A program made the position numbers and the translations under genes. The notes beneath the pieces are model-generated. The model saw only the letters and a list, made by a program, of their open reading frames with translations, made no database searches and was not told the DNA's origin. Source: a virus. Taken from it: a stretch of DNA of 59,487 bases. Positions within the stretch are counted from its first letter, which is position 1. Each line of letters opens with the position of its first letter. Below are positions 1 to 58,499 of this stretch, one piece after another. Where the stretch lies: IMG/VR virus record IMGVR_UViG_3300027896_005002, positions 1-59,487 of that record; one strand, given 5' to 3'.

Positions 1-3000
1 CTTATGCCACTATAACCTGACAATCCCGAATATCCTGATGTACCTATACCCGAATAACCTGATTGTCCACTATAACCAGATATGCCCGAATAACCACTTT
101 GACCCGAATATCCTGATGATCCTTGACCAGAATACCCTGATATTCCTGAATAACCAGATGCACCTTCACCTGAATAACCAGATTGTCCTGAATAACCTGA
201 TGTTCCTACACCACTATAACCACTTTGTCCAGAATATCCACTTATACCTGAATAACCACTATGCCCAGAATATCCACTAATTCCTTGAGGTCCTGAAGGT
301 CCTGGAGCTCCACTTAAAGCAACTTCCCAAGTTGAATAAGTTCCTGATCCTGTAGTAAGAGTTATATTTACAACTAATGATCCTGTCCCAAAATCATAAG
401 ATGAAATTGATCCCTCCATCTTATTTGAACTATCATAAGCTATAATAATAGTCTGACCTATTGATAAAGCTAATCCTGCTTCAACAGTTAAATTTTGAAC
501 TCCCGTTCCAATAGTTAATGTAGTAGTTGAAGAAGTAGTATATCTATCACCTTCAAGTCCTGAATAACCTGAAGTACCTAAACCAGAATAACCACTAATA
601 CCTGAATATCCACTCTGTCCTGAATATCCTGAAATACCACTATATCCTGAATTTCCTGAATATCCACTTTGTCCTAATTCTCCTGAATATCCTGATGATC
701 CAGAATCACCTGAATATCCACTCGATCCAGAATACCCTGATGCTCCAGAATATCCACTTATACCTGAATAACCAGATGACCCAGGATTATCGCCACTAAA
801 TCCTGAATATCCACTAACACCCAATCCTGAATAACCACTAATACCTGAATATCCACTAACACCCAATCCTGAATAACCACTATATCCCAAACCTGAATAT
901 CCACTAATACCTGAATAACCGCTATATCCCAAACCTGAATATCCACTAATACCTGAATAACCGGATTGTCCTTGACTTCCTGATACACCTTGTTGTCCTT
1001 GTAAGAATATTATCCACGATGCAAAAGATCCAGATCCACTAATATTACTAACACTAACTGTCATATTTGGATGACTATATGCAGTAATACTACCTTGCAT
1101 ATAATTATTTAAATTTACTGAATAAGAAATGCTAACTCTCTGACCAACAGTAAATGATAAAGAATTTGCTCCATCTAATACAAAACTCTGAGTAAGAAAA
1201 CTTATTGTCATTGAAGTAGTAGATGTTCCATAAAAATTAGAACTTATTCCACTATATCCACTAAGTCCTGAAATTCCAGAATAACCACTTTGTCCTGAAT
1301 AGCCTGAAGATCCAGGATTATCACCACTAAATCCTGAAATTCCACTATACCCTGATGATCCGGGATTATCACCACTAAATCCTGAAACTCCACTATATCC
1401 ACTTTGTCCTGAATATCCTGATGATCCAGGATTATCACCACTAAATCCTGAAACTCCACTATATCCACTAAGACCACTGTATCCCGAATGACCTGACAAA
1501 CCTGAATATCCGCTTCGACCTGAATATCCGCTTCGACCTGAATATCCAGATACTCCTAATTCACCTGAATATCCTGATTGTCCAGAATATCCAGATATTC
1601 CTGAATAGCCTGACATTCCAGAACTACCAATTCCTGAATAGCCTGATTCACCTGAATATCCAGACGCTCCAGAATAACCCGATGTTCCTATTCCAGAATA
1701 TCCTGAAGTACCTACACCAGAATATCCTGAAATTCCGGATTGTCCTTGACTTCCTGATACACCTTGTTGTCCTTGTAAGAATATTATCCACGATGCAAAA
1801 GATCCAGATCCACTAATATTACTAACACTAACTGTCATATTTGGATGACTATATACAGTAATACTACCTTGCATATAATTATTTAAATTTGCTGAATAAG
1901 AAATACTAACTCGTTGTCCGACAGTAAATGATAAAGAATTTGCTCCATCTAATACAAAACTCTGAGTAAGAAGACTTATTGTCATTGAAGTAGTAGATGT
2001 TCCATAAAAATTAGAACTTATTCCACTATATCCGGATGACCCTGAATATCCGCTTTGACCTGAATAGCCTGAAATTCCAATTCCAGAATATCCACTTGCG
2101 CCAATTGTTCCAGAATAACCACTTACACCAACTTCTCCTGAATAACCGCTTACACCAACTTCTCCTGAATATCCTGAAACTCCACTATATCCACTTTGTC
2201 CTGAATAACCTGATGATCCGGGATTATCACCACTAAATCCTGAAACTCCACTATATCCACTTTGTCCTGAATATCCTGATGATCCAGGATTATCACCACT
2301 AAATCCTGAAATTCCACTATACCCTGAAATTCCACTATCACCAGAATATCCGGAAATTCCACTATAACCGGATGTTCCTACTCCAGAATACCCTGATGTT
2401 CCTACTCCAGAATACCCACTTATACCACTATAACCTGACAATCCTGAATATCCACTAATTCCACTATAACCGGATGTTCCAATACCTGAATATCCACTAA
2501 CGCCTATTTCTCCCGAATAACCTGATGTACCTACACCAGAATATCCTGACATTCCAGAATAACCAGACATTCCTGAATATCCACTTATTCCACTATATCC
2601 TGACGATCCAATGCTACCTGAATATCCACTTTCGCCAATTGTTCCTGAATACCCTGAAGTACCTACACCAGAATACCCTGAAGTACCTACACCAGAATAT
2701 CCCGACATTCCACTATATCCTGATCGACCACTATAACCCGATATTCCACTATATCCTGAAACGCCACTATAACCTGATATTCCACTGTATCCTGATGTAC
2801 CGATGCCAGAATACCCACTAATACCTATTTGACCAGAATATCCACTAACACCCGAACCTGAAAAACCAGAATATCCTGATCGACCACTATAACCTGAATA
2901 CCCTTTTTGACCTTCTATTGATACTAACCAATTTGAATATGTACCTGATCCCTGAATTGTATCAACATTAACTGTTAACAATCCAGAACCATTATTATAA

Positions 3001-35733: not shown

Positions 35734-35745
35734 AAATTATCCTTT

Positions 35746-42006: not shown

Positions 42007-42191
42007 ACACTTGCAGCATCAGCTAAGCCATCCGGTCGAGTATCATCATTTTCATCTTCAACCGGTTGTGTATATTTACATTTAGGATAATTCGTACAAC
42101 CTAAAAATCGTTTATTTTCTCTATTTTTTCGTTTAATTAATCTACCATCACATCTAGGACAGTCCCAAATTGTAATATCATCATCTTTCAT
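41997..42191 (-). CDS. Stand-alone topoisomerase-type C4 zinc-finger protein (64 aa) with acidic tail
   Basis: Seen in sequence: WDCPRCDGRLIKRKNRENKRFLGCTNYPKCKYTQP matches the CPxCG..L..R.gR.G.FlGCsnYPkCkyT zinc-finger pattern, of which topA in this window carries two copies. Confidence 0.6.
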   Translation of the reverse strand: MKDDDITIWDCPRCDGRLIKRKNRENKRFLGCTNYPKCKYTQPVEDENDDTRPDGLADAASVWE

Positions 42192-43258: not shown

Positions 43259-43809
43259 AATAACACCTTAAAATTAAATTTATCATTTAAAAATTTTCTT
43301 GATATATCAATCACATCTTTAATACTATGTGATCCTGAATCTATACTAATAGATTTTATTTTTGTTTTTAAAAAAATACGATTAAAATGTGATGTTAATT
43401 CATCATAATCATCCTGACTATAAACATTGTTTTTATCTTTTTTTCGTGCCAATAAATATTTATAATCGCAATATAAATATATTAATGCAACTTTATATCG
43501 TGATAATTTATCATCAATCATTTCAAATCTTCTCATTGCTTTGTCTTTAGTAATACGATTAAATGCTTGACTATAAGCATATTCAGATAAATGCAAACGA
43601 TCAAATAAGATATTATAATCTCTTGACATGAATTGAGCAAACCATGCAATAGAACAGTTATTGCCTAATGCAAAATCTGATATATTTGCTATCCGGGCAT
43701 TTGCAAATTCGGGAAATAATCGTTTACTTGCGAAGAGGTCAAAGTGCTTGAAACTATTTGCTAGCGTAGATTTACCTGTATCGTGCAGACCTTCTATAAT
43801 CACAAACAT
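43255..43809 (-). CDS. P-loop deoxynucleoside/nucleotide-kinase-like protein
   Basis: Seen in sequence: Walker A VIIEGLHDTGKSTLA; FDRLHLSEYAY resembles the dNK/dNMP-kinase DR...E motif; 184 aa. Confidence 0.55.
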   Translation of the reverse strand: MFVIIEGLHDTGKSTLANSFKHFDLFASKRLFPEFANARIANISDFALGNNCSIAWFAQFMSRDYNILFDRLHLSEYAYSQAFNRITKDKAMRRFEMIDDKLSRYKVALIYLYCDYKYLLARKKDKNNVYSQDDYDELTSHFNRIFLKTKIKSISIDSGSHSIKDVIDISRKFLNDKFNFKVLL

Positions 43810-43843: not shown

Positions 43844-45007
43844 TTATTCGATATCTATTTCTAACAAATCAACAACATTATCTGAATTTAAATCAATTGT
43901 TGATCCTGTTGTTTTATACATTTCAGACATAAAATTCAAATATGGATCATATCGTAAAATCCTAGATTTATCCGCATCAAATATTAACATTGTATCATCT
44001 ACTCGTCCAGGTTTTAATACCGTAATAGTTTTAGCAATATAATTTGAATCACCTGTATTTTCAAACGACGAATTAACTCTCAAAATTTTAATTCCATCAT
44101 TCAAATAAAGATAATTATTTGCAAGTTTAACCATTCCTAAATATGTAGTATCAGGCACACCTGCTATTACTTGATTTTCAAACATCGAAAAAGAATCTGT
44201 ACCTTCAACTGTTTTTAATATATTTTTAGATTTGCCACAAATAAAAAAGCTATCTACATTATATCCTCTAACAAATCCTGTTGGCATTAATTCATTGCCA
44301 TTATCCATAAGAGGTAAACTTACTTTTTTACTTACAAGATTTGTAGATATTCGTTCAATTTTAATATTTCCACTAGTCGTTAATCCCAATATATATATAT
44401 CATGCGTTATGTCATCGTTGTACAAATAATATGGTTTATGTGTTAATACAGCTGATGTACTATATAAAGTACCACTACCAACAATTGTAATATCAATTGG
44501 TATATTACTCAAAGCATTTTGATAAGTCGTTGCAACTTTAATTAAGTTTGTTGAAACAGCAATAGTATAATATGTAGTATTAACTATTAAAGGTCTTGGC
44601 ATTCTGTCAATGCCAGGATGTTTTAAATTAAATTTTATTGTATCACCTGTATGATAAATATGAGGCGTACCGTCAGTTACAATGTCATCTGTATGATTTG
44701 TTATAGTAATATTATTATCTATATTTGCAGTAACAATATTCATTTTTTGTTGTGTTATATCTGGAAATTGTCCTAAATAAGATAAATTTGAGCCTAATTT
44801 AACAATTCTATTATTATTATAATCGCATAAAAATATAAATTGATTGTCTGAATCAGCAACAACTGATGACGGAAATCGTAATGTGCCTGGCACACCATAC
44901 ACACCATAACTTGTACCGTCATAATGTGATATTGAATTATTTGAATCCAATCTTTTTACAATATGTTTATCTGTACATTGAACAACGTAGGTTTTGAAGT
45001 CACTCAT
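43844..45007 (-). CDS. NHL-repeat (six-bladed beta-propeller-like) fibre protein, paralog family member
   Basis: Seen in sequence: N-terminal YVVQCTDKHIVKRLD...YGVYGVPGTLRFPSSVVADSDNQFIFLCDYNNNRIVKL; C-terminal LNDGIKILRVNSSFENTGDSNYIAKT...LIFDADKSRILRYD. Confidence 0.55.
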   Translation of the reverse strand: MSDFKTYVVQCTDKHIVKRLDSNNSISHYDGTSYGVYGVPGTLRFPSSVVADSDNQFIFLCDYNNNRIVKLGSNLSYLGQFPDITQQKMNIVTANIDNNITITNHTDDIVTDGTPHIYHTGDTIKFNLKHPGIDRMPRPLIVNTTYYTIAVSTNLIKVATTYQNALSNIPIDITIVGSGTLYSTSAVLTHKPYYLYNDDITHDIYILGLTTSGNIKIERISTNLVSKKVSLPLMDNGNELMPTGFVRGYNVDSFFICGKSKNILKTVEGTDSFSMFENQVIAGVPDTTYLGMVKLANNYLYLNDGIKILRVNSSFENTGDSNYIAKTITVLKPGRVDDTMLIFDADKSRILRYDPYLNFMSEMYKTTGSTIDLNSDNVVDLLEIDIE

Positions 45008-45015
45008 ATATATCC

Positions 45016-46899
45016 TTAACTAAAATTTTTTTCTAACAATCCAGAAACATATTTTAAATCTGTAGTTATTGTGCTTCCAGAATCTGTAAATACAGTTTCA
45101 ATAAAATTCAGATTCAAATCATATCTTAAAATTGACATTGTTTCTACATTATATATTAATAAACTATCACCTAATCCAATTGATAATCCATATAATGTCT
45201 TTGAAATAAAATCAGAATAATTAATAATTGTCAAATCTGAACCTTTAATAACAGCTTTTGCTAATCTTTCACCAGTATTCAAAAATATAGCTTGTTGATC
45301 ACTCATCATAACCATTCCTACATATCTTTTTGGCACTTTATCAAATGGTGCAACGATAAGTTGTTTTTCAACAGCTTGAGAAAATGGTGATCCGTTCTCT
45401 AATACACTGTATAAAGTATTTCTTATTCCACAAATTAAAATCTCATTAAAATCGAGCCCTCTACAAAACCAAAATGGTTTGAAATTAAAATTACTTAATT
45501 GACCAAAAAGATTATTAGAATAACCTTGATCAGTCAATGATGTTGATAATTTTTGTATACCAACATACATAAATAAATCTCTACCAGAAATTGTTACAAA
45601 ATTTATTCCCAATACATAAAGAAAGACATTTAATTCATCATAAAATATAGCACATGGTTTACCAATAGTATTACTCGTATTGTATTGATTTGAAAATCGT
45701 AAAAACTCATCCAATTTGATAACTCTTGAATTCTCATAATCACAAACATAAATTTGATTACCGACATCCATAGTAATATTTTGAGGAAAATTTAATCCTG
45801 TTAATCCACTACCGGGTGTCCCAAATATTCCAAAAAAAGCATTATCATATATTGCAGGTACAGGATTTGTCGTATCAAATCGTTTTACTACATGCTTTTT
45901 AGTTTGTTGTACAATAAATAATTTATTTCCAGTAAGAGGTACTGGTGTATAAACACCATTAAGAGCGCCTATTGTTGTTATGCCTAATGTACGGACATCA
46001 CCATTAAAATCATCAATAGGAACATCATTATCAATATTATGACCAATTGCATTAAAAAAACATGGACTATTATCAATTGGATTAAATAATGCTGCTGCTG
46101 GATTTTCAAGTAAAGGATTTAAAAATCTCAAATTATGAGAACCAATATATGCACTGACATTACTAAAATCAGTTCCTCCATGTGGCGCAAAAGTAATGTT
46201 ATAATCAATTGACAATCCACCACCACCAACATTACCATCAGAATTAATACATGTATCATTTTGGCTCGAAAATATATTATTTAATATTTTACCTTGATGA
46301 ATATTAATTAAATTTATACCAGTTTGACCAGTATATAGAGTATTACTAACTATAACAATATTCGTGACGCCTGAACCTTCTCGTGTTTCTATAAAATTCG
46401 TTAATGCATCAAATTGTCCAGTATTAGTAAAAATACTATTAATTACTTTTAATGAAATAGAGCCTTGTGAATATCGATCGAGTACAGATGCATGATCAAA
46501 ATAACATTGTTCTACAAAAATTGATGTTTGATGATATGCAGCAATTACATTAGTATAATAACCGGCACCAGTAATTTTAAGTTGATATAAATAGACAGAC
46601 CCTGGTGATCCAGATCTATCAAAAGCAATAGATACTAATTCAGTATCATCTCGTAATGGAATATGCCATGTCGGTTTATTTATATTACTTGGCCATGATT
46701 GTATAGTTAATGAAAATGGAACTAATAAAAAATTACCTAATTCAGGTTCCATAATAATACCATTGTCTACTACATCAATTGTATCATCATTTGCAAGTCC
46801 TGGTATTCCTGCTATAAGACCAGTCAAAGAATGATATCCTTCATTAGGAATTAAACCTGTTTGCGTTGTAGACCCAGCATTCAAAAAATAAGTTGTCAT
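45016..46899 (-). CDS. Fibre or tailspike-like protein: N-terminal right-handed beta-helix-like region followed by NHL-repeat region
   Basis: Seen in sequence: N/I/T-rich ~22-aa rungs (TNIVIVSNTLYTGQTGINLINIHQGKILNNIFSS), then LFIVQQTKKHVVKRFD...FGIFGTPGSGLTGLNFPQNITMDVGNQIYVCDYENSRVIKL. Confidence 0.5.
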   Translation of the reverse strand: MTTYFLNAGSTTQTGLIPNEGYHSLTGLIAGIPGLANDDTIDVVDNGIIMEPELGNFLLVPFSLTIQSWPSNINKPTWHIPLRDDTELVSIAFDRSGSPGSVYLYQLKITGAGYYTNVIAAYHQTSIFVEQCYFDHASVLDRYSQGSISLKVINSIFTNTGQFDALTNFIETREGSGVTNIVIVSNTLYTGQTGINLINIHQGKILNNIFSSQNDTCINSDGNVGGGGLSIDYNITFAPHGGTDFSNVSAYIGSHNLRFLNPLLENPAAALFNPIDNSPCFFNAIGHNIDNDVPIDDFNGDVRTLGITTIGALNGVYTPVPLTGNKLFIVQQTKKHVVKRFDTTNPVPAIYDNAFFGIFGTPGSGLTGLNFPQNITMDVGNQIYVCDYENSRVIKLDEFLRFSNQYNTSNTIGKPCAIFYDELNVFLYVLGINFVTISGRDLFMYVGIQKLSTSLTDQGYSNNLFGQLSNFNFKPFWFCRGLDFNEILICGIRNTLYSVLENGSPFSQAVEKQLIVAPFDKVPKRYVGMVMMSDQQAIFLNTGERLAKAVIKGSDLTIINYSDFISKTLYGLSIGLGDSLLIYNVETMSILRYDLNLNFIETVFTDSGSTITTDLKYVSGLLEKNFS

Positions 46900-46907
46900 T
46901 TTATTCC

Positions 46908-49493
46908 TTATAAAGTATTGGTTTCTGCTATGTCTTCAACATCATAAGCATCAGTACCAATAGTTCCATCAGTATTTGAATAAACAATATTAACAAAATT
47001 TAAATTTGTATCATATTTTACTATTTTTTGTTTATCAGCATCATAAAGCATGAGTGTTTCATCTAGTTCACTTAATTTTAATCCTATTAATGTCTTTGTT
47101 ATAAAATTTGTGCGACCAATACGTTCAAATGATGAATTAACTTTTATAACACTTTTACCATCATTAAGATATAAAAATCCTTCATCAGAAACAATACCTT
47201 TATATAAAACTTGAGATTCACCAACATCACATATTATATTTTTTCTAACAAATAATGAAAAACTATTATCAGATTCTACAGTTTGATACAATGCTAAATT
47301 TACACCAGATATTAAAATACTATTAGCATCAAATCCCAAACATATACCGGTTGGATAATGTATTACATCACCAGGATTATTTAAATTTCCACTAACTTTT
47401 AAACTACTTAATGATGTAGATAACTTTTCTATTCTAATTTGATATGCATAATTAGATGTAAAAAAAACACCGACAACATATAATGAATTATTATTGTCAT
47501 CATACATAATTACCACTGGATTGCCAATTGTAGAAATTGTACTATATTTACTAACAAAATTTAATGTAGAATTTAATTTAACAATTCTATTATTAACTGT
47601 GTCACATACATAAATATTATTATCACCATCAATTGTAATACCATTTGGATAATTTAACATTGAATCTGTCGTTCCAGGCGTTTGATATACTCCAAATTCA
47701 TGTCCATCATATATTGCAGGTATTATAGAAGAATCTAAACTCTTTATAATATGACGTTTTGTTCGTTGTGTTAAATACATTTTAATAGTTGGTAAAACTG
47801 TAAAATCTACTGCACCTATTCCTATACGAACAGAATTCCATAAGCCTTGTTCATATTCTGTATAAGGAGGATTTCCGGGTTGTGTAGGTGTCAATGTTCC
47901 CACTGCTAATATAGAATTAGAAAAATTTGATCTACTACCATCCCATATAGGAGGAGGAGGTTGAATCCATCCAACTTGACAGTTAGTTAAAGTAGGTCTT
48001 ACAAGAGGCGCTACAGACATTGCACTATTTTTAAATATACCATCATCGACGTTTGCAGTTGATCCAAGTAAACAATCTATAAAAGTTGATTGCTTGTTAA
48101 AATAGACTGCACCAATACCAATTCTATTTGATCCCCATAAACCTTTTTCATATCCTACATAAGGTGCAATTCCGGGTTGTGGGGGACTTTCAGTACCCAA
48201 AGAAAGTATAGAATTATAAAATCCCTGTTTATCACCATCCCATTGCGGAACGGTAGGTTGAGTCCATCCTACTTGACATTCATCTACTAATCCACCTATT
48301 TGAGGAGTGTCAGCCATAGCACATCTTACAAAATTACCATTGTCAACATCTACAACAGATCCAAGTAAGCAATCTACAAACACTGATGGTGCTAAAACAT
48401 TTATATATCTATTCTTTAAAAGTTCAACATATCTCACTCTTAACATCACATTAAATTTTCCTGAATTATAATAATCGTGAGAAGGATTCTCGTCTGCTGA
48501 ATGACCTCCATCACCAAAATCCCAATAATAATCTAAAGAAAAACCCAATGGATTAGACACAATATGTAAAAAATCTACATGAAGCGGGTGAAATCCTACT
48601 CTGGGAGACGCAGAAAAATCACTCTGCACCATCACCATCCATGACCTTCCTAATAAAACATCTAAAAACTTATTTGACGGTGATGCATTGACGTCAGAAA
48701 TGCCAACCTTTACAAAGATACTCAAATCAAAGTTCCATATATACAAATCTGTCCCTACTCCTACATACAATATTCCATAATCATTATCTAAATATATGCT
48801 ATTAATGTTTCCTGGAATAGACCCTAAAGTAGAAGTTACTCCATTATACATATATAAGATAGTGTTTCCTGAACCATCGGGAGCATAAAAATATACTATC
48901 TCTCCTGTAGTTGTATATCCACCTACTCCTCTTCCCACATAATCAGTTTCCACAAACTCACTGGTTAATGAGTTCCATTTCGCAAAATATCCTATATCTG
49001 GATTAGATATTCTAGTTCCACAAGCATACATATTAGAAGGCGTATTAAAAATTTTAATGCTTTGTATTTCATAAGGAAAAGAAAAAAGTTGAACAGAATC
49101 AGTCATATCAAAAAAACCATAAAAATTAGCGGTATAAATATGACCGTTAAAATACGTTATAGATTCATACCCGCCTGTATAGAATGGAATACCTCTCCAA
49201 GCCAACCATCCTTCCTCTTCAGTCCAAGTATGTACAGCATTAAAAGTCCCACATATATATATTTTTGTTCCATCTGTAGTTAAATCAAGAAAGGCATCAA
49301 TTGAACCCGACATTTGAGAAGATGCAAACCAATTAAAAAGATCCGAAGTATAATACAATATTTGCCCTGTATATCCAAAATCACCTCGATTCATGGCAAA
49401 TATCTTGCCTCCACAAATAGCATATCTACTATCTCCCCCAGAAGCAAGAAGATGAATTAATATTTGATTATAATTAAAATCAGGTGCTGACAT
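46908..49493 (-). CDS. Fibre protein: beta-propeller, PKD domain, two ~95-aa Cys-containing tandem modules, NHL-repeat region
   Basis: Seen in sequence: PKD motif YYWDFGDGGHSADENPSHDY. Tandem modules FVDCLLGSVVDVDNGNF...CQVGWTQP...GLWGSNRIGIGAV and FIDCLLGSTANVDDGIF...CQVGWIQP...GLWNSVRIGIGAV. YLTQRTKRHIIKSLD...NNIYVCDTVNNRIVKL. Confidence 0.55.
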   Translation of the reverse strand: MSAPDFNYNQILIHLLASGGDSRYAICGGKIFAMNRGDFGYTGQILYYTSDLFNWFASSQMSGSIDAFLDLTTDGTKIYICGTFNAVHTWTEEEGWLAWRGIPFYTGGYESITYFNGHIYTANFYGFFDMTDSVQLFSFPYEIQSIKIFNTPSNMYACGTRISNPDIGYFAKWNSLTSEFVETDYVGRGVGGYTTTGEIVYFYAPDGSGNTILYMYNGVTSTLGSIPGNINSIYLDNDYGILYVGVGTDLYIWNFDLSIFVKVGISDVNASPSNKFLDVLLGRSWMVMVQSDFSASPRVGFHPLHVDFLHIVSNPLGFSLDYYWDFGDGGHSADENPSHDYYNSGKFNVMLRVRYVELLKNRYINVLAPSVFVDCLLGSVVDVDNGNFVRCAMADTPQIGGLVDECQVGWTQPTVPQWDGDKQGFYNSILSLGTESPPQPGIAPYVGYEKGLWGSNRIGIGAVYFNKQSTFIDCLLGSTANVDDGIFKNSAMSVAPLVRPTLTNCQVGWIQPPPPIWDGSRSNFSNSILAVGTLTPTQPGNPPYTEYEQGLWNSVRIGIGAVDFTVLPTIKMYLTQRTKRHIIKSLDSSIIPAIYDGHEFGVYQTPGTTDSMLNYPNGITIDGDNNIYVCDTVNNRIVKLNSTLNFVSKYSTISTIGNPVVIMYDDNNNSLYVVGVFFTSNYAYQIRIEKLSTSLSSLKVSGNLNNPGDVIHYPTGICLGFDANSILISGVNLALYQTVESDNSFSLFVRKNIICDVGESQVLYKGIVSDEGFLYLNDGKSVIKVNSSFERIGRTNFITKTLIGLKLSELDETLMLYDADKQKIVKYDTNLNFVNIVYSNTDGTIGTDAYDVEDIAETNTL

Positions 49494-51437
49494 TTATTCC
49501 TCTGTAATATAAAGATGTCCATAAACAGTTAATCCTTTTCCCACTATTCCACTAACATCTATATTAGTAGCTATCAATACTACATCCTTACATTCATACA
49601 TTCTATGTATATCTCCTCTTGTATATAGTATAGCATCTTTTATCCTTGAATCAGTGTTATCAAAAGTATCTTCAGGCACCAAACGTAAGTCCCCGACACC
49701 TATATTCCCTATTCTCCAATTTCCATTTATATCTGGCATTTGACTTTGCCAGTGATTACTATAAATTCCAAGTATCTCTTCTACATCCGTATTTAACGTT
49801 CTTATTCCTTTAATACTAAAATAATTTTCTATCTGATTAGAAGAAGAATATACCTTTAACTCATCATATGTAAATTGATCATTAAATGTTCCTAAATGTC
49901 CCGATCCTGTATAAGAATTATCTATTGTTGCATAAAGACATGTAAAATTAAATAATGTTTCAACAATATTACTTGGTATATAATTAGTCTTATATGCTTT
50001 TGCACGAAGTGTTACTCCATCTAAAGCTATATAGAAAGGATTTACATAAAGTAAAGAAGAAGGAGAAGGTTCTGTACCATCAAGAGTATATCTTATAGAA
50101 ACCCCAGGAGTAGAACATGATAATCTTACCAAAACTGGATTTGTAAAACTCCCTCCATTAGGATCAATTATAGGATCTTCACAAAATGGCGTTTGTGCAT
50201 CTATATAAGCAATTTTTGTATTTTCAACTATTCCCCATCCAGATATAGTAGCTCTTAGTACTACTGTATAAGTGTTAATCGCTGTATAAATATGAGATGG
50301 ATTTTGAGTACTGCCATGAGATGATCCATCTCCAAAATCCCAATCCCATACTGTTATCCTATCTGAAGGTTGGGTAAGGTCTGTAAAATTAACTGTCAAC
50401 GGAATGGGTCCTGAAACAGGGTCTCCACTAAAATCAGCTGCAGGTTCTAATACAGAAATATAATTTATTTTTATCTTAGAATGCGGCCCAGATTCATCTG
50501 TAACTATAAGTGATATAGTATACTGGTTTGGTACATTATATAAATGCGGCGGAGGGGTCTGTAAAGAACTATGCAATGATCCGTCTCCAAAATCCCAATC
50601 CCAACTTATTGGACTTGGCCATGTAGATAAATCAGTAAATTGTACAGTAGAACCTGCATACAATGATGTCGGGGTACCTGAAAAATCAGTTCTTATTGTA
50701 CTTTCATATTCAAAAATGTCCTCCTGTTGAGAATTTGCATAAAGAACTTCGGTTGGCGTAACACACATACCTAACCAATTATGGAATGGTTGTCCCAAAG
50801 CAACAAAATCTCCAATACCCGCTGTTCGTTTATAAACATCTCCTGCATAATCACTTATATAGACATCCCCATTAGAAAGATCAGATGCTATACCATAATA
50901 CCATAAAGGATGTCCATCTCGTATAAAAGGTAAACCCAGTGGAATAAAATCTCCAATACCCCCAGCTTGTACAAAAATATCATCTTCCCAAGAAGCTGCA
51001 TAAATATCACCATTTAAGGCGGAACCCATGCCTCTCCAAGCTCTCGTAGTCTGAGTCTGTTCTATCCAATCAACTCCAACTTGTTTAAATATTTTCCAAT
51101 CATTTATTGCTAAATATATATCACCATTAGGTGCGACTGTTACTGCAAATGCACCGCTATCTGAGTCTACATATATAAAATCACCAATACCTCCACTCCT
51201 TTTAAACAAACCATCACCATAGGACACTACATAAATATCCCCGGTATTCGGATTAGCAGCCATATTTGTCCAATTTAATTGTTGTTGATTTAAAGCAATA
51301 AAGTCACCGGATCCTCCTGCTTGTATATAAATATCTCCACCATTACCAATGCAAGCATAAACGTCACCATTAGGCGCAGCGGTCATCCCAGACCATCCTA
51401 AGGCTCCTTGATTTAATGCTACAAATTCATAAGGCAC
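49494..51437 (-). CDS. Fibre protein: ~40-aa beta-propeller-type repeats (GDIY...GG.GDF), two PKD domains, chitobiase-C/Fn3-like domain
   Basis: Seen in sequence: repeats GDVYACIGNGGDIYIQAGGSGDFIAL, GDIYVVSYGDGLFKRSGGIGDFIYV, GDIYAASWEDDIFVQAGGIGDFIPL. PKD motifs WDWDFGDGSLHSS and WDWDFGDGSSHGSTQNPSHIY. SIRYTLDGTEPSPSSLLY. GTG start at 51437 preceded by AGAGGT. Confidence 0.55.
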   Translation of the reverse strand: MPYEFVALNQGALGWSGMTAAPNGDVYACIGNGGDIYIQAGGSGDFIALNQQQLNWTNMAANPNTGDIYVVSYGDGLFKRSGGIGDFIYVDSDSGAFAVTVAPNGDIYLAINDWKIFKQVGVDWIEQTQTTRAWRGMGSALNGDIYAASWEDDIFVQAGGIGDFIPLGLPFIRDGHPLWYYGIASDLSNGDVYISDYAGDVYKRTAGIGDFVALGQPFHNWLGMCVTPTEVLYANSQQEDIFEYESTIRTDFSGTPTSLYAGSTVQFTDLSTWPSPISWDWDFGDGSLHSSLQTPPPHLYNVPNQYTISLIVTDESGPHSKIKINYISVLEPAADFSGDPVSGPIPLTVNFTDLTQPSDRITVWDWDFGDGSSHGSTQNPSHIYTAINTYTVVLRATISGWGIVENTKIAYIDAQTPFCEDPIIDPNGGSFTNPVLVRLSCSTPGVSIRYTLDGTEPSPSSLLYVNPFYIALDGVTLRAKAYKTNYIPSNIVETLFNFTCLYATIDNSYTGSGHLGTFNDQFTYDELKVYSSSNQIENYFSIKGIRTLNTDVEEILGIYSNHWQSQMPDINGNWRIGNIGVGDLRLVPEDTFDNTDSRIKDAILYTRGDIHRMYECKDVVLIATNIDVSGIVGKGLTVYGHLYITEE

Positions 51438-51594
51438 TGTAACCTCTATTCTGTTTAATTATTCTTTAAACATTATGTATTTTTATTATACAATATAAAA
51501 CTCATTTATATCATCTCATATAAATTCATTATAAAGATCACTGTTTTCGCACTTATTATCCAAATTAAAAACTACTTTTATATATCATTTGCTT

Positions 51595-52818
51595 TTAAAC
51601 AGAAACAGTTTTTCTACTTTTATTTGATATCTCAATATTTTTCTTTAAAGAATCTTTAATATTTTCATTATCACTATTTCTATATTTTATCCTTAAATTA
51701 TCATCATGATCAATATGAATTAATGAAGTGAAAGCAAATGAATGTTCATACAATCCAATATCAATAAACTTATGAAAAATATCTTCATCTTCATATCCAT
51801 ATCCATTCATCGACTCATTGAACCCATTTACCCTTTTAAAATTTGATAATTCAACAAAAAATGTACCTAACGTATGTCTATCATTAGGCAACCCTCCTCT
51901 AAAAAAACAATTTTTTACTTCAAAAATATTTAAATTACTTGCAATTTTTACATCTGAATCTATAAACATTACATACTTTGTAGTAACAAATTTAGCTCCA
52001 AAATTTCTTGATTTAGATCCATGAAATTCTTTTTGTCCATCTACTCGTATAATTTTTACCAATTTATTGAGCTCTTCAATTTCTTGCAAATTTATATCAC
52101 TAGACCAATCAACGACAATAATATTAGTAAAACCATAATTTAACCATGATTTATAACTCTGTAACAGGAAACTTTCTCGATTCATGCACACAGTAACTAA
52201 AGTAACATCATCATTATTAAAATTAAAATTAATTTTTGGATAATTAGATAAAAATTCATGACCTTCAAATTTAACTAAAATTTTATTATTATCTTGTCTA
52301 GTAAAACAAATATCTTGATTTGAAATTTGCTGCCATAATCCTGCAATATTATTTAATGTTAAACCAATAGCAAGATGTTTAAAATATCCTTCAGGTATTA
52401 TTTGAAATCTATGCTTATACTTAGCTAATAAACTAGACATGTGTCGTTTATCAAAAACAGAAAAATTATTTATAATTTCATACACTAATTCACGATCATT
52501 ATGACTTATATACATAACACATTCATAAGGACCTTTAAATAAATAGGATAACTCAGGATTAAAATCAAACCATTTAGTAATAATTATGTCAGAATCCATC
52601 CATATAGAATCAGGATTATCCCTCAAATATTGTAGTCGAAATAAAGAACTAGCAAATCGAATGTCTGAAAATTTAGACAAATCAAAATTTTGTGGAAACT
52701 TAGTAATTAATTTATATTGAACATTCTGTGGTTTATCATTTTTAATTTTATCCATGAAAAATTTGTAACATTCTGGAATTTTATCACTATTGAAAAACTG
52801 TACAATCTTCATGTTCAT
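51595..52818 (-). CDS. Two-domain glycosyltransferase (N-terminal DXD sugar-binding GT32-like domain; C-terminal GT2/GT7-like domain)
   Basis: Seen in sequence: ASSLFRLQYLRDNPDSIWMDSDIII matches the Gly_transf_sug pattern (R.L.yL...GG/ds.yiDtD). C-terminal VTLVTVCMNRES...NIIVVDWSSD...VMFIDSDV...GYGYEDEDIFHK is GT2/beta-4-GalT-like. Confidence 0.6.
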   Translation of the reverse strand: MNMKIVQFFNSDKIPECYKFFMDKIKNDKPQNVQYKLITKFPQNFDLSKFSDIRFASSLFRLQYLRDNPDSIWMDSDIIITKWFDFNPELSYLFKGPYECVMYISHNDRELVYEIINNFSVFDKRHMSSLLAKYKHRFQIIPEGYFKHLAIGLTLNNIAGLWQQISNQDICFTRQDNNKILVKFEGHEFLSNYPKINFNFNNDDVTLVTVCMNRESFLLQSYKSWLNYGFTNIIVVDWSSDINLQEIEELNKLVKIIRVDGQKEFHGSKSRNFGAKFVTTKYVMFIDSDVKIASNLNIFEVKNCFFRGGLPNDRHTLGTFFVELSNFKRVNGFNESMNGYGYEDEDIFHKFIDIGLYEHSFAFTSLIHIDHDDNLRIKYRNSDNENIKDSLKKNIEISNKSRKTVSV

Positions 52819-52832
52819 TTATTCCAAATTGA

Positions 52833-54128
52833 TTATGCTGGAAAATTTGATTGATCATACCATACCCAATAAGAGATATATGCTGTATCAGTCCAATTAT
52901 TATACAGTCCTACTTTAACCGAATCAATTGCTGGATCATGATAAATAGCAGGATCACTATGTTTTGCATCTAGCATATATACATTTAATGTTCCAGGATT
53001 TGTTCTACTAGATGCTGAAAGATGTACCGGATCAGCATTATAAATAAAAGTAATAACTACATTACCATATTGATTATTAGTAAAATGAAAAAAACCAGAA
53101 ACCATATTTGTTAATGGTTCATCACCTGGTAAATAAGCTGTAATAAAACCAAAACCAACAAGACTTCGACTACCAGTACCTTCTGTAAAAATAATTGGTA
53201 AATCTTCTTGCTCTGCCAAATATATTCTATCAGCCTTAAAATGCGCTCCAACTGATGTAGGCGGGTCAGGATGACCAACAGGATCACCACCATAAAGAGT
53301 TTTATTTGCTACACTATACCAAATACTATTTACGGCATCATTACCTGTATCATAAATAGCAGTATATGGCGAATTAATAATTACTCTTGCTGGACTTATT
53401 GGCCATAAATTAATATCTGTAGAACAATAAATTCCAGTACTAGCACCAGCCCCGCTATTATCACCAATACTTAAAAAATTAAAAGTTGATTCATTAACAT
53501 AATTAAAAATAACAGAAAATATACCAGGATCTAAAAATGTTGCAAGAACAGATCCTATATATGTTGCAAATCCTACACCATTAACTATCATTGTACTATA
53601 AAAACTTGAGTCTATCGCTACATAAGGAACAAAACTTATAACGGCAGTACTATCTTCAATTTCAAATTTTGACACTAATGGTGCATTTCCAATACCAACA
53701 TTAGTTCCATCAGTTTTTACTGGCGATGAAGCTATAGAACTTGCACTAGTAAATTTCGCCAAATAACCGGATGATCCTGATCCAGCAAATGCTCCTGAAA
53801 TACCTGAATAACCACTAATTCCTTGCGTACCTGGTGGTCCTTGTATTCCTTGTGAACCAATATGCCCTGAATAACCTGAATAACCTGAATAACCTGAATA
53901 ACCAGATATACCTTGAGCACCAGAATATCCAGAAAAACCAAGACCTGAATATCCTGAAAATCCAGTGACAAAATGATTGCCATCTTTGTCTTTCATAACA
54001 ACATGATGAGTATCATTTGCAATTCCAGCTTGACATGGATCTAAATTTGCAATTAAATCTACTTCAGTATTATTTATCCATGTTATATGTTTTGGCACTG
54101 AATTAGGTTCATTATATTGATTACCCAT
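52833..54128 (-). CDS. Collagen-like GYSG-repeat fibre protein with C-terminal globular domain (431 aa)
   Basis: Seen in sequence: GFSGYSGLGFSGYSGAQGISGYSGYSGYSGYSGHIGSQGIQGPPGTQGISGYSGISG. Strong AAAGGAGA Shine-Dalgarno. Confidence 0.65.
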   Translation of the reverse strand: MGNQYNEPNSVPKHITWINNTEVDLIANLDPCQAGIANDTHHVVMKDKDGNHFVTGFSGYSGLGFSGYSGAQGISGYSGYSGYSGYSGHIGSQGIQGPPGTQGISGYSGISGAFAGSGSSGYLAKFTSASSIASSPVKTDGTNVGIGNAPLVSKFEIEDSTAVISFVPYVAIDSSFYSTMIVNGVGFATYIGSVLATFLDPGIFSVIFNYVNESTFNFLSIGDNSGAGASTGIYCSTDINLWPISPARVIINSPYTAIYDTGNDAVNSIWYSVANKTLYGGDPVGHPDPPTSVGAHFKADRIYLAEQEDLPIIFTEGTGSRSLVGFGFITAYLPGDEPLTNMVSGFFHFTNNQYGNVVITFIYNADPVHLSASSRTNPGTLNVYMLDAKHSDPAIYHDPAIDSVKVGLYNNWTDTAYISYWVWYDQSNFPA

Positions 54129-54137
54129 ACATCTCCT

Positions 54138-55088
54138 TTACGGAAAAAATTCAACAAAATCTGAAATATCATATGCATCAGTTGCTATTAACCCATCATT
54201 AGGATATGAATATACATCATCTATATATGTTAACTCTGAATCAAATCGCATAATTTTTCTTTTATTTGCATCATATGTCAACAATTGACCGGTCATTCTA
54301 TTTTCAGTTAATCCTAATAATGACCTGGAAATATTCTGCGTGTTGCCAATTTTATTAAAAGTGCTATCAACTCTAATTAATTTTTGCCCATTATTAAAAT
54401 AATAATCATCATTGGAATGTTTAATCACTTTATTGTAATTTGTATCAGTAAATGTACTATAAATTGTTCCTTTAGTAGTCTCACCATGGATTACCTGTCG
54501 AACTAAAGGTGAAAATGTTTGTGTTGCAAAATAATAATTTGTAATATAAATATATTCATCTATTCCAGTAATAAAATATTGAATATATACAGTTTCAAAA
54601 TCAGGTGTAGGTGATACAAAATAAAAACCTGTAGGCTTACAATTATTATTCTTTAAAGTATATAAAACATCACTCACAACAGGATCTGTTAAACTATTTG
54701 CTGATAATTTTATTATTCTAAGATTTAATTTAGAATCAACTACAATTACAAATATATTATCTTGCAGCATAGTAACTCGCCATTCATAACTTATTGCATA
54801 GGGATAACCATAATTCTCTGTTAAATATGATGCAACAAAAAATCCTTCTGGAAAAAAACTATCAAGTAAAAGTACTCTTTTATTACCAGTATCAGAGATA
54901 TAAAAATTAGTATTCGACAAACTAACATCTGAAATACATTGGGGACAATTCAATTTTGTGAGGGAATTTCCTGGAATACCAAATACACCAAATTCAATAC
55001 CATTATACACTGCAGGATCAACAGTAGCATCCAGACTTTTCAAAATATGACGTTTTGACCTTTGCGTCAAATAAATTGTTCTCGACAT
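54138..55088 (-). CDS. NHL-repeat fibre protein, paralog family member (316 aa)
   Basis: Seen in sequence: MSRTIYLTQRSKRHILKSLD...FGVFGIPGNSLTKLNCPQCISDV...DTGNKRVLLL; C-terminal FNNGQKLIRVDSTFNKIGNTQ...LLTYDANKRKIMRFD. Confidence 0.5.
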   Translation of the reverse strand: MSRTIYLTQRSKRHILKSLDATVDPAVYNGIEFGVFGIPGNSLTKLNCPQCISDVSLSNTNFYISDTGNKRVLLLDSFFPEGFFVASYLTENYGYPYAISYEWRVTMLQDNIFVIVVDSKLNLRIIKLSANSLTDPVVSDVLYTLKNNNCKPTGFYFVSPTPDFETVYIQYFITGIDEYIYITNYYFATQTFSPLVRQVIHGETTKGTIYSTFTDTNYNKVIKHSNDDYYFNNGQKLIRVDSTFNKIGNTQNISRSLLGLTENRMTGQLLTYDANKRKIMRFDSELTYIDDVYSYPNDGLIATDAYDISDFVEFFP

Positions 55089-55107
55089 ATAACTTTGTCT
55101 CCATAAA

Positions 55108-56526
55108 CTAAGAAATTTCTACAATATCTGTTACGTCATATGCACTTGTCTGAAGTGTATCTCCAGTACCATGAAATACATTCTCAATAAAATTAAGATT
55201 TGCACTATATCTCGAAATTGTTTGTGTATCAGCATTATATATTAACAATGACTGATATCTAGGATCGTGAATGTCACCAACATTACTAACTTTTAAACAA
55301 CGAATAGTTTTTGCAATAATATCCGTATCACCTTCATTTACAAAACTACTATTAACTCTCAAAATTTTTCGACCATTATTAACAAAAATATATCCATTTG
55401 GATGTTTTACAATCGCATTAAAAGCTGTATTCATAAATTCATTTGGCCACGTTGGTAATTCACCAATTACAGTTTGTGTAGTAAAAACAGAAAAGTTTGT
55501 TGATTCAATTGTTTGAAATAAACTACCAACAGCATAACCGCCATTAATAGGGCGCACATTTGGTAAATAAACAGTCCAAGGAAAATGTGTTCCTGAACCA
55601 TTTGTTGATGTAACATTTACTACTAAATTACCATTTATATGATTATATGAAGTAATAGTCCCTTGCATATTATTAGATACATCGTACTTAATAATAATAT
55701 TTTGCCCTGCAGAAAATGCTAAACCTGTTCCTATAACAAGTGATTGACTGCCAGTTCCAATAGTTAAATGCGTCGATGATGATGTTGTTGAACTAGTTGC
55801 ATAAGTAGGACTTGAAACAACTCTAGCAGCTCCACTTACTATAAAACTATTTGAAGCAAATCCTCTACAAATTCCCGTCGGTCTAAACCACGCAGTTTGT
55901 ATATTGTTTAAATTTCCACTAACTTTTACACTAACTAAATTTGTTGTAAGTCTTTCAATTCTAATAAAAGGACCACTATGATCTGGTAAATAAACAGACC
56001 AAGAAGAATATGTTCCTGAACCATTTATTGATAATACATTAACAACTAATTGACCATTTATCGGATTATAAGAAGTAATCATTCCTTGCATGTTAATTGA
56101 TGGATTATTAAAATATTCAATAATAATATTTTGTCCGACTGAATATGACAAACTCGTTTGTATAACTAGAGATTGACTACCCAATCCAACAGTTAACGAT
56201 GTTATTGATGTTGATGATGGTGGTTCTCCTGCACCCATGCCAACTACATACAAATCATTTGTAATATCATCATACATTATAGCATATGGTTTACCTATAG
56301 TATTTGCAGTACTATGCTCTGAATGATACGTTAAATTGGGATAAAGTTTTACAACTCTTGAATGATCACAAACAAACCAATATCCACTATTTGCAACACC
56401 CCATGGATAATTTAATGTACTATTAGTCTCACCTTTAACACCAAACGTACCAAAACTATCACCTACAACACCATTATTTACGGCTTTAACAACATGACAT
56501 TTAGTTCTTTGTGTAAAATGAATCAT
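55108..56526 (-). CDS. NHL-repeat fibre protein carrying two copies of the beta-sandwich module also found in the giant GYSG protein
   Basis: Seen in sequence: LTVGLGSQSLVIQTSLSYSVGQNIIIEYFNNPSINMQGMITSYNPINGQLVVNVLSINGSGTYSSWSVYLP and HLTIGTGSQSLVIGTGLAFSAGQNIIIKYDVSNNMQGTITSYNHINGNLVVNVTSTNGSGTHFPWTVYLP. These align with TLTIGTGSQTLTIGTQLAYSIGQEILIVYDASNSMKGNVVVYNPVNGYFVVNVTSIIGSGTYSNWNVSL from 1..5843. Confidence 0.55.
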   Translation of the reverse strand: MIHFTQRTKCHVVKAVNNGVVGDSFGTFGVKGETNSTLNYPWGVANSGYWFVCDHSRVVKLYPNLTYHSEHSTANTIGKPYAIMYDDITNDLYVVGMGAGEPPSSTSITSLTVGLGSQSLVIQTSLSYSVGQNIIIEYFNNPSINMQGMITSYNPINGQLVVNVLSINGSGTYSSWSVYLPDHSGPFIRIERLTTNLVSVKVSGNLNNIQTAWFRPTGICRGFASNSFIVSGAARVVSSPTYATSSTTSSSTHLTIGTGSQSLVIGTGLAFSAGQNIIIKYDVSNNMQGTITSYNHINGNLVVNVTSTNGSGTHFPWTVYLPNVRPINGGYAVGSLFQTIESTNFSVFTTQTVIGELPTWPNEFMNTAFNAIVKHPNGYIFVNNGRKILRVNSSFVNEGDTDIIAKTIRCLKVSNVGDIHDPRYQSLLIYNADTQTISRYSANLNFIENVFHGTGDTLQTSAYDVTDIVEIS

Positions 56527-56588: not shown

Positions 56589-58499
56589 TTAAAATAATCC
56601 TTCGCTAGCTAACCTTGCAACAAAAGCTTCTGTATTATCATAAGTTTCTACATTGCCATTTTTATCAACAATATACTCTTCAAGTACAGGTTGACCATTT
56701 TCTTCTTTATAATTAGTCTTTATTGTAATATAACCATCACCTTGCTTTACAGTGTCAACTGTTGAATAACTTTTGTTTGATTCAGCAAAAGTTACCTCAG
56801 GCATTGTAATAACTTCATCAAAAATATCATCTACTACTTGAGCAATCCTTTCATTAACTGATGATTTCTTTTTCTTCTTCTTGTCTTCTTTATAATGAGG
56901 TTCTGGCTTCTTCGTTAATTTTCCACCAGGACCCCATTTTTCACCAGGTTTCTTTTTTGACATCCACCAACTATTATGAACAAAAACACCTGCATCTAAA
57001 GCAAAATTATGATACTTATCAACCGTAAAATCATAGACATCTTCTTTAACATCAAGTACTTTTGCACTAACAACTTTATGATTAATTTTTAATTGGTACT
57101 TTTTCTCTGTTTCAAAAATAAGATTATCTAAAGTACCAAAAGTTTTGATAGCAGTACAAAAATCAGGATTGTTAATTGAATGTCTATGTTCATCCCATGT
57201 ATTTTCATTAATTGGTAAATTAGCTTCAATAATTCTTTTTGTTACTTTCATTGATTTTGCTTTTACCATATTACCAAATTTAAATTTTTCATCTACATTA
57301 ATTTTAATTTGATCAACTGTACCAAAGTGTAAAATTGCTGTAGAAAAAGATGGATTACTTTTGTATCCCATATGCTCAAACCATGTATTTTCATTAATTG
57401 ACAACCCATAATCCATTATTCTTTTTGCTATCCTCAAAATTTTTGATTTTGTAATCGTGCCATCAATATTTCTTTCTCTAATAGCTTCAATTGCTTCTTC
57501 AGATTCATTATATTTTCCTAAAGCAATTTTTCCAGCTTCAGCACCTAACATTCCATTTTCCTTACAGTTTTTAATTTGCTCACCGCGATGCTTTTGCCAC
57601 AATAATTTCATATTACGTCTTCCAATAATAGACGCCATTATTCGACCTTCTTCAGACTTATTATATTCAATTAGATATTTTGCACAATCAGCTCTACGAT
57701 GAAGTATTGAATGTTCACTACCAGTAAGTAATTTGATATTATTTGGATGGTTATTATCTTTATTAAAATCGTCATGATGATTAATAAAACCTCTTGTCCA
57801 TTCTTTACCAAACTTCATCTTAGCAACAAGTCTATGAACAAAATGTTTTTTTCCATCATTCGACCAACATCGTTTATAACCGTCACAAAAACTTCCTTCA
57901 TATCTATCAAAATAAATCGGCATCAAAGATTCATTACATTGCAAATTCTGAGCTTCTTTATAAGAACCATCAATTAACATAAACTTATGATTTTTAGTAC
58001 ATCTAATTGATTGTCCATTATCAAGAATAATCTCAATAAGCTCAGCATTATTAATTGTTTTATGAAAATTAAATGCTTTTCCTACAACAATTTTATTTTG
58101 ATCAACATCAAAAGAATAAACAAATGTTTCTTTATCTATACCAAATTCATCAACTAATTGTTTTATTGATAACACTCTTCCATCCAACAGTGGTACTTTA
58201 GTATCACCAGTAAAACACAATGCCCAAGGATTTGTAATATTCTTGTGCTTTTTCATTGCACGTGTTGTTCCTCCCCATCCTGGAGGAGATACAGCTACTT
58301 TTTCGTTTGCCAATACTTCACTGGCAACACGATCAATATTTTCATTCATACTACCTCTCCTTAAACGATTCTTAAATTGTTCCTCGATTAGTTCTTTACC
58401 ATCACTCGGCAAATCAACAAATCTCTTCTCTAACTGATCATGTCCATTTTCGGCATAATCAGTTCGTTCACGTAATGGCTGTAACTTCTCGTCTAACAT
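56589..58499 (-). CDS. Intein-containing precursor of a ~221-aa Lys/Trp-rich protein of unknown function (94-aa N-extein, 415-aa intein, 127-aa C-extein)
   Basis: Seen in sequence: the extein junctions are ...NITNPWAL | CFTGDTKVPLLDG (intein block A, Cys1) and ...VYDFTVDKYHNFALDAGVFVHN | SWWMSKK (terminal His-Asn, Ser+1). Block B TxxH is IRCTKNHKFML. Confidence 0.75.
   Translation of the reverse strand: MLDEKLQPLRERTDYAENGHDQLEKRFVDLPSDGKELIEEQFKNRLRRGSMNENIDRVASEVLANEKVAVSPPGWGGTTRAMKKHKNITNPWALCFTGDTKVPLLDGRVLSIKQLVDEFGIDKETFVYSFDVDQNKIVVGKAFNFHKTINNAELIEIILDNGQSIRCTKNHKFMLIDGSYKEAQNLQCNESLMPIYFDRYEGSFCDGYKRCWSNDGKKHFVHRLVAKMKFGKEWTRGFINHHDDFNKDNNHPNNIKLLTGSEHSILHRRADCAKYLIEYNKSEEGRIMASIIGRRNMKLLWQKHRGEQIKNCKENGMLGAEAGKIALGKYNESEEAIEAIRERNIDGTITKSKILRIAKRIMDYGLSINENTWFEHMGYKSNPSFSTAILHFGTVDQIKINVDEKFKFGNMVKAKSMKVTKRIIEANLPINENTWDEHRHSINNPDFCTAIKTFGTLDNLIFETEKKYQLKINHKVVSAKVLDVKEDVYDFTVDKYHNFALDAGVFVHNSWWMSKKKPGEKWGPGGKLTKKPEPHYKEDKKKKKKSSVNERIAQVVDDIFDEVITMPEVTFAESNKSYSTVDTVKQGDGYITIKTNYKEENGQPVLEEYIVDKNGNVETYDNTEAFVARLASEGLF
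56973..58217 (-). mobile_element. Intein (Hint domain split by an HNH homing-endonuclease domain and two copies of a ~45-aa helical repeat)
   Basis: Seen in sequence: I mapped the boundaries codon by codon (Cys1 codon at 58215-58217; terminal Asn codon at 56973-56975). The HNH-like region is HFVHRLVAKMKFGKEWTRGFINHHDDFNKDNNHPNNIKLLTGSEHSILHRR. The internal duplicates are NENTWFEHMGYKSNPSFSTAILHFGTVDQI and NENTWDEHRHSINNPDFCTAIKTFGTLDNL. Confidence 0.75.

Follow-up and report, generated by a model that had tools for sequence, protein, structure and literature searches.

A conserved array of five beta-propeller paralogues in an uncultivated huge phage: candidate host-binding modules of the virion surface

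Huge phages are almost entirely uncultivated, and the way in which they recognise their hosts is barely charted. In the Klebsiella jumbo phages and in CBA120, conserved N-terminal docking regions are combined with variable C-terminal beta-helix enzymes, and the location of these proteins in the virion is proven. In staphylococcal phage receptor-binding proteins (RBPs) a five-bladed propeller reportedly forms a 'platform', as told of phi11 Gp45 and in the structure paper on the P68 tail fibre, and Stummeyer et al. are said to have described in 2005 a barrel inserted into the propeller of the K1F endosialidase. The latter combines a six-bladed propeller, a small all-beta binding domain and a beta-helix in host recognition (PMC13564897). 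The branched fibre of phiKp24 gives a broad capsule range, and hairs on the heads or tails of jumbo phages have been described as well (both reviewed in PMC13282480). Here we analysed IMG/VR virus record IMGVR_UViG_3300027896_005002 over its whole length of 59,487 nucleotides (hereafter the window), and describe a group of genes at positions 43844-56526 in which five paralogues with a common predicted propeller stand together with collagen-like, repeat/PKD/CHB_HEX_C and glycosyltransferase genes. Judged from sequence comparison, these genes make up a conserved array within a clade of huge phages.

The array consists of eight tightly packed open reading frames (ORFs) on the minus strand, transcribed in the order g472, g316, g431, g407, g647, g861, g627, g387 (Table 1). 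Every gene is complete, co-oriented and has its own start, and the spacers are 0-19 nt long, apart from one gap of 157 nt. These boundaries agree with those of an earlier reading of the window made from the letters alone (hereafter the sequence-only reading), which had seen in the region a seven-member paralogous family of fibres or spikes. For five of the proteins (g472, g316, g861, g627 and g387), we found a common unit of ~290 residues that runs from a (Y/F)xTQRTKxH strand to the C-terminus. In an all-against-all comparison these modules were pairwise 30-43% identical (BLASTP E 1e-14 to 2e-51 over 200-320 residues), a similarity far beyond chance. The module starts at residue ~322 in g627 and at ~568 in g861, and it is split by one insertion in g387, where BLASTP and the alignment both detect it, and by two in g472, where the family-profile hmmsearch covers the profile in three pieces and BLASTP matches the other four paralogues. 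Its N-terminal motif reads YLTQRTKRHIIK in g861, the only protein to follow the originally proposed wording exactly, and occurs in looser versions in g472, g316, g627 and g387; as had been observed, it is N-terminal in three proteins (g387, g316, g472) and internal in two (~326 in g627, ~571 in g861). Also common to the five are the NIYVCD..N.RIVKL blade and the LNDG..ILRVNSSF / LLIYDAD...I.RYD blades. The sequence-only reading had listed the motif and a C-terminal blade as separate recurring elements, and both do recur, but BLASTP and the alignment make them parts of one ~290-residue domain. The five genes were also said to be consecutive, which is wrong, since g647, the glycosyltransferase g407 and g431 separate g387, g627 and g861 from g316 and g472. 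As the module genes are interrupted in this way, and as g647 and g431 are linked to them through other domains only, we count five paralogues, two domain-sharing neighbours and one glycosyltransferase, not seven paralogues.

The NHL repeats proposed earlier were recovered for one blade of the module. Pfam PF01436 (NHL) matched g387, g627 and g861 with 20.8, 24.8 and 35.1 bits (cutoff 20), and gave no match to g316 or g472. Among the sequences of the PDB, the family profile matched NHL blades of Pizza designs, PknD and TRIM71 over profile positions 44-74 only, and in none of the paralogues did we recognise several NHL repeats per domain, only this one blade (residues ~44-76 of g316). The closest sequence relatives of this canonical blade include the RNA-binding NHL domains of TRIM71, TRIM2 and Brat. 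An AlphaFold2 (AF2) model of g316, built with 24 homologues (pLDDT 86.6, pTM 0.86), was all beta with six blades, and its best structural matches were all non-enzymatic binding propellers, while a fold search of BFVD returned generic viral propellers only (TM 0.32-0.57), with no annotated fibre among them. As modelled, the module is a closed six-bladed beta-propeller of the NHL/YWTD class, in which the recurring motif is a structural element and not a generic linker. By our own assignment, the first three strands (with the TQRTxRH turn) and the last C-terminal strand (DAYDV.D..E) would belong to one blade, so that the ring closes with the termini side by side, and the propeller could therefore stand alone, be C-terminal or sit mid-chain as it does in relatives. 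In the window it stands alone in g316, it is C-terminal after other domains in g627 and g861, and it carries loop-inserted domains in g472 and g387. The residues that are invariant across the family are mostly Gly, Pro, Phe and Leu, plus the canonical NHL D..N.R motif; in g316 numbering, R10, R13, H14, D57, D66, N69, R71, D102, E184, D283, N287 and D304 are among them.

The inserts of g387 and g472 are predicted to sit in D-A or B-C loops, on the 'top' face of the propeller, and family-wide nearly all insertions of at least 8 residues fall in loops assigned to this face. In the AF2 model of g472 (pLDDT 74.6, propeller blades >85), both inserts are seven-strand all-beta units (pLDDT about 65-83). 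They are 68% identical to each other and, as the sequence-only reading had noticed, related to a giant collagen-like GYSG protein at the start of the window: the first insert is 54% identical (E 1e-19) to residues 238-309 of that protein, and the second is 61% identical (E 1e-20) to the module of the giant protein. The g387 insert has a stretch of 38-65 residues in common with array proteins of 1078 and 1086 residues on two IMG/VR contigs, L009 and L010, which have no match in Pfam or PHROG. These two proteins lie at 14377-17613 of L009 and 12216-15476 of L010, and the common stretch reads ..YY.I.V....IK.A.TY..A......ID... For g627, residues 1-623 align end to end, at 31% identity, with an 854-residue protein of a related locus (L007) that has an N-terminal Pfam Beta_helix match (4.6e-9) and a C-terminal Laminin_G domain; a search of PDB sequences with the g627 N-terminus gave no match, and we call a beta-helix in g627 because its L007 orthologue has one.

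An exhaustive search with the family profile over 1.84 billion representatives returned two kinds of matches, namely giant multi-NHL proteins, matched in the canonical blade only, and about 70 non-identical proteins with the whole module. Most of the latter are stand-alone propellers of 281-336 residues, and the others have N- and/or C-terminal extensions and reach up to 1182 residues; none bears a name in any source. The family surfaced by profile only: a search with the single g316 sequence in a set of 5.8 billion proteins found g316 itself and nothing else. Among GenBank phages (50,697 records, tblastn), g316 had no match, g861 was matched via its PKD region only, and g647 matched two unrelated records over PKD, with one match extending towards CHB_HEX_C. 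In 185,579 species genomes there was no full-length member, only generic NHL matches to a single blade, and a narrower family alignment found two true IMG/VR loci. Within these searches, the propeller is a distinct family, with full-length members on no contigs other than phage-like and metagenomic ones. It is new as a family, being absent from Pfam, PHROGs and NCBIfam, and what was known is the NHL/YWTD superfamily to which its fold and one of its blades can be assigned.

Related contigs from several huge-phage lineages have arrays with three to four or more paralogues, in two cases at the same place in the genome. L006 and L007 (phage of 326-336 kb) have four members, of 293, 294, 854 and 547 residues, L009 and L010 have four each, a 398 kb contig (L005) has three, and L008 at least two. 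In L007 the array occupies the same position as in the window, after a protein of ~200 residues and before dTMP-kinase-like, radical SAM/SPASM, UDG and GyrB genes. In L005, the first propeller gene is separated from the second by five small ORFs (105-125 residues; 10871-12720) that match no family. To follow the history of the paralogues we built a neighbour-joining tree of the modules with bootstrap. The tree groups modules by paralogue type across phages, not by phage, and the order of the array is kept. Bootstrap support is 77-100 except for the first-position types, which fall together with just 49%; second-position types group with 88%, the beta-helix/large type (g627, L007_854, L009_953, L010_960) with 87%, g861 with L009_287 and L010_581 with 78%, and g387 with L007_547 with 94%; only the distant L005 shows an expansion of its own lineage. 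The paralogue types are thus orthologous across phages, so the duplications must be old and each type has been retained. At the same time, the accessory domains differ between orthologues: g861 has 567 residues more than the bare L009_287, the two inserts of g472 are absent from its orthologues, and the orthologues in relatives carry other domains (Laminin-G, Ig, FN3). Comparison of the locus among related phages, which the sequence-only reading had suggested as a check on the presence or absence of individual cassettes, thus bears out a change of accessory domains on paralogue types kept in fixed order. The modular construction proposed earlier also holds, with the propeller combined with PKD, beta-helix, repeat-propeller, all-beta insert and collagen-associated modules. 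On the evidence of these alignments and the tree, the history of the family is one of domain shuffling on a stable paralogue scaffold.

We favour the reading that the five propeller proteins are virion-surface, non-enzymatic binding modules that attach the particle to the host, and we give it a probability of roughly 0.55. We infer this from the adhesion-type domains with which the propeller is fused (PKD, CHB_HEX_C, beta-helix, Laminin-G/ConA-like, Ig and FN3, as fusions or insertions within the family), from the lack of a signal peptide or membrane segment in a crude hydropathy scan, from the domains in common with the giant collagen-like protein, from the binding propellers that are the nearest folds, from the bias of insertions to one face and from the restriction to phage-like contigs. 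It is typical of virion proteins, which lysis releases, to carry extracellular-type domains but no export signal. The PKD, Ig, FN3, Laminin-G, beta-helix and CHB_HEX_C domains mark extracellular or surface proteins and are seldom seen in cytoplasmic factors; with the collagen repeats, they belong to adhesion or glycan-binding types that in phages are usual for structural proteins. Phage Ig-like domains, as Fraser et al. reportedly found in 2006, occur almost exclusively on structural proteins. Furthermore, the Ig and Laminin-G parts of the relatives match tail and Hoc-like PHROGs. Under this reading, propellers on the virion surface would bind glycans or proteins of the host surface, every paralogue type would serve one fixed role of its own, and accessory domains would be appended N-terminally or plugged into loops on one propeller face, so that the phage could adapt to hosts by exchange of these domains and not by gene switching.

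Several observations weigh against such a role. No propeller paralogue matches a tail or head family of PHROG, and tail-fibre matches occur solely in the collagen run of g431 and in the Laminin-G, Ig and FN3 domains of relatives. We recognised no tail or baseplate genes beside the array, where the neighbours are the ~200-residue protein and the dTMP-kinase-like, radical SAM/SPASM, UDG and gyrase genes, and the genes upstream of the array in L007 had no structural matches either. In classical receptor-binding arrays the N-terminal anchors are conserved and the C-termini vary, whereas here the conserved part is C-terminal or the whole protein, and no N-terminal anchor domain was detected. Moreover, top and bottom loops do not differ in substitution variability (column entropy 2.11 vs 2.23 bits, Mann-Whitney p = 0.63), so there is no clear hypervariable ligand face, and the assignment of faces itself comes from the predicted g316 model and textbook propeller topology.

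Part of this evidence would fit a different location. The propellers could be intracellular or released accessory proteins, expanded by duplication, with functions in host takeover, anti-defence or the binding of RNA or protein in the manner of TRIM-NHL proteins; the array does have metabolic and DNA-handling genes around it and lies apart from the head genes, it lacks structural PHROG matches, its canonical blade has the RNA-binding domains named above among its relatives, and the majority of the family consists of propellers alone, without an obvious anchor. We consider this unlikely, given the fusions to PKD, Ig, FN3, Laminin-G, beta-helix and CHB_HEX_C and the modules in common with collagen-like proteins, and since structural genes are commonly scattered in huge phages, gene position is weak evidence. 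The proteins could alternatively be catalytic, with the propeller acting as a lyase, lactonase or glycosidase-type depolymerase (cf. Vgb lyase, PAL, SMP30 and endosialidase propellers) and the array degrading the host envelope. That is quite improbable, because the best structural matches are all non-enzymatic, no enzyme family of Pfam or NCBIfam matches, and the invariant residues do not form a recognisable metal or catalytic set. It is also conceivable, if doubtful, that the propeller is a docking hub through which a fixed set of four to five orthologous paralogues assemble together, or on glycosylated collagen-like fibrils, on the capsid or the tail of phage-G-like huge phages. Were this true, host-binding payloads would sit at either end or in the loops of one face, a modular adhesion apparatus of inverted logic, with a conserved C-terminal or stand-alone hub and variable N-termini and loop inserts, that would have no counterpart in a characterised phage.

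The sequence-only reading had offered, beside a multivalent adsorption apparatus, a cassette system that switches or recombines alternative receptor-binding genes to change host range, and this we regard as highly improbable. The array does hold several tandem paralogues with different accessory domains, and a strain variant (L004, from another metagenome) is slightly different in the collagen-like gene: compared with window positions 51497-56272 it has 12 substitutions and one 9-nt deletion (53895-53903) that shortens the g431 collagen run by one G-x-y triplet, with six of the substitutions clustered in the C-terminal domain of g431 (53235-53370) and only one in a propeller gene. However, switching elements such as those of invertible segments (Mu G/Gin, P1 C/Cin), shufflons or diversity-generating retroelements were not found. 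The array genes are all intact, on one strand and with starts of their own; inverted matches are only 20-30 nt long, AT-rich and of 71-86% complementarity, and none brackets a gene; there is no near-identical pair of template and variable repeats, the DNA repeats being 70-82% identical over at most 181 nt and the longest of them being paralogous or internally duplicated coding segments; and the scanned ORFs of the array and its surroundings included no invertase, integrase, recombinase or reverse transcriptase. Paralogues that are only 30-43% identical, in ancient orthologous groups that keep their order, are the opposite of fast turnover.

If the proteins are virion adhesins, the propeller family would mark the adsorption apparatus of this clade, would offer a way into host prediction and would exemplify how host range evolves when domains are inserted into a stable propeller scaffold. 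If they have no place in the virion, the array would be a large but ordinary expansion of paralogues.

The other genes of the array are connected to the propeller proteins by their domains. The collagen-like g431, which does not belong to the propeller paralogues, has G-Y-S/G-x-S triplets at residues ~56-115 (window 53784-53963) ahead of a C-terminal domain of ~300 residues; Pfam Collagen matches with 27.4 bits (cutoff 27.2), the NCBIfam matches are Scl/Lcl collagen-like adhesins, and PHROG tail-fibre families match through the collagen run only. Pfam thus confirms the collagen repeats and PKD domains (one in g861, two in g647) of the sequence-only reading, and adds CHB_HEX_C in g647. The PKD domain is common to g647 and g861, CHB_HEX_C to g647 and the giant protein (E 2e-8), and the GYSG collagen triplets to g431 and the giant protein. 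The tandem repeats of g647, which lacks the family module, probably form another propeller, judging from their sequence. The glycosyltransferase g407 matches Pfam Glycos_transf_2 (5e-10) and Glyco_transf_7C (2e-8). The giant protein has an N-terminal domain with CHB_HEX_C, 62% of its length is made up of G-x-y runs at least five triplets long, and between its GYSG runs are five ~70-residue modules of the type inserted in g472. A profile of this module found 13 short unannotated fragments as sole matches, and neither the module nor the N-terminus of the giant protein with its first module had a homologue in GenBank phages (tblastn). One may speculate that the Ser-rich collagen repeats are targets of O-glycosylation, which, together with the glycosyltransferases, would suggest glycosylation of the virion. 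Elsewhere in the window, a 1019-residue protein (16202-19261) combines a methyltransferase domain with three GT2 domains, and a gene at 10895-11644 is nucleotide-sugar-epimerase-like.

The flanks of the array are conserved as well. The ~200-residue protein directly precedes the arrays of L007, L008, L009 and L010, that is, of all loci with an available flank, and has no GenBank phage match (tblastn). In the window (g636), in L009 and in L010 it carries an HNH intein, recognised in g636 by Pfam Intein_splicing (1.7e-21) and HNH_3 at a conserved insertion site (NPWAL|..|SWWM), and the exteins of g636 match intein-free proteins of 195 and 201 residues ahead of the arrays in L008 and L007. The three genes directly downstream of the array recur in unchanged order in L007, the 326 kb relative, at 46-60% identity, and may be co-transcribed with the array. 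A role of the radical SAM/SPASM gene in modifying the paralogues was set aside, as its best matches are generic maturases, well below their cutoffs. A scan for promoters and terminators found no more than in shuffled sequence. The window as a whole has a G+C content of ~30%, has all its sizeable genes on the minus strand, and encodes gyrase A and B, a topoisomerase and several glycosyltransferases in addition to head genes. Its portal is 32-33% identical to the portals of Lysinibacillus phage G and of an uncultured 485 kb phage, and metagenomic contigs of up to 416 kb carry the exact g316 protein; the source is an uncultivated huge phage (~416 kb) from a clade distantly related to phage G.

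Table 1. Features of the array, its neighbours and the rest of the window
Feature	Position	Strand	Description
g636	56589..58499	-	Upstream neighbour of ~200 residues with intein and HNH endonuclease, about 56973-58211
g472	55108..56526	-	Propeller paralogue, first array position; whole ~290-residue module with two domain insertions
g472 insert 1	55957..56199	-	All-beta module of ~70 residues, B-C loop of blade 3 (predicted)
g472 insert 2	55543..55770	-	Second copy of the insert 1 module, B-C loop of blade 4 (predicted)
g316	54138..55088	-	Propeller module is the entire protein; minimal family member in the window
g431	52833..54128	-	Collagen-like; not a propeller paralogue
g407	51595..52818	-	Family-2 glycosyltransferase inside the array; not a family member
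g647	49494..51437	-	Without propeller family module
g647 tandem repeats	50703-51437		Six repeats of ~40 residues, from the repeat listing
g647 PKD domains	50178-50690		Two domains; Pfam PKD_4 4.8e-23
g647 CHB_HEX_C	49962-50162		Pfam CHB_HEX_C_1 5.5e-17; C-terminal domain beyond
g861	46908..49493	-	N-terminal repeat region of ~290 residues, PKD, Cys/Trp-rich repeats, propeller
g861 PKD	48432-48611		Pfam PKD_4 34.4 bits
g861 Cys/Trp-rich repeats	47796-48380		Two repeats of ~100 residues; DNA direct repeat D1
g861 propeller module	46908-47795		Family profile at residues 570-859, E 1.6e-107; Pfam NHL 35.1 bits
g627	45016..46899	-	N-terminal right-handed beta-helix region (45940-46899) and propeller module (45016-45939)
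g387	43844..45007	-	Propeller module with one insertion of ~105 residues (44438-44752), loop between blades 2 and 3 (predicted)
dTMP-kinase-like, radical SAM/SPASM and UDG-family genes	41383-43809		Directly downstream of the array
GyrA, GyrB, type IA topoisomerase	33201-40491		Full length, in a row
Large terminase	28447-30357		Same window as the array
Portal	25034-27619		Same window as the array
Prohead protease	22896-24581		Same window as the array
Major capsid protein	19354-20226		Same window as the array
Homing endonuclease	6258-7019		GIY-YIG/HNH PHROG families; adjoins the giant collagen-like gene
Giant collagen-like GYSG protein	3..5843	-	At least 1947 residues, running off the window start

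Compared with the known NHL/YWTD propellers (TRIM71, TRIM2, Brat; PknD of M. tuberculosis; nidogen, LDLR, LRP), the array family has one recognisable NHL blade in six, its other blades and the strictly conserved N-terminal TQRTxRH are specific to it, and its members carry whole domains in their loops. The long collagen-type triplet runs of g431 and the giant GYSG protein are also a feature of Scl, Lcl and BclA, and these two proteins could potentially form hairs of the kind seen on PTm1 and PTm5 (Tenacibaculum phages) and on Erwinia phage Y3, although the hair genes of those phages are not known to be related to them. The aquatic jumbo phages of the 'moraphage' paper were left out of the comparison, since their genomes are smaller (200-307 kb) and neither collagen nor NHL comes up in that paper. 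With phi11 Gp45 and P68 the favoured reading has in common a propeller as the host-binding head of a fibre; their propellers have five blades and are unrelated in sequence, each phage has just one such gene, and the fibre context is trimeric. Like the multi-RBP clusters of phiKp24, PhiK64-1 and RaK2 and the four tailspikes of CBA120, the array is a tandem of large modular genes of adhesion or depolymerase type, one of which (g627) has a beta-helix, whereas its shared unit is a C-terminal or stand-alone propeller, with no docking domain detected, and its location in the virion is a prediction. The K1F endosialidase has a sialidase-type propeller with catalytic residues, without sequence relation to the array family, and a cleaved C-terminal chaperone domain that the family lacks, but in its architecture it provides the precedent for g472 and g387.

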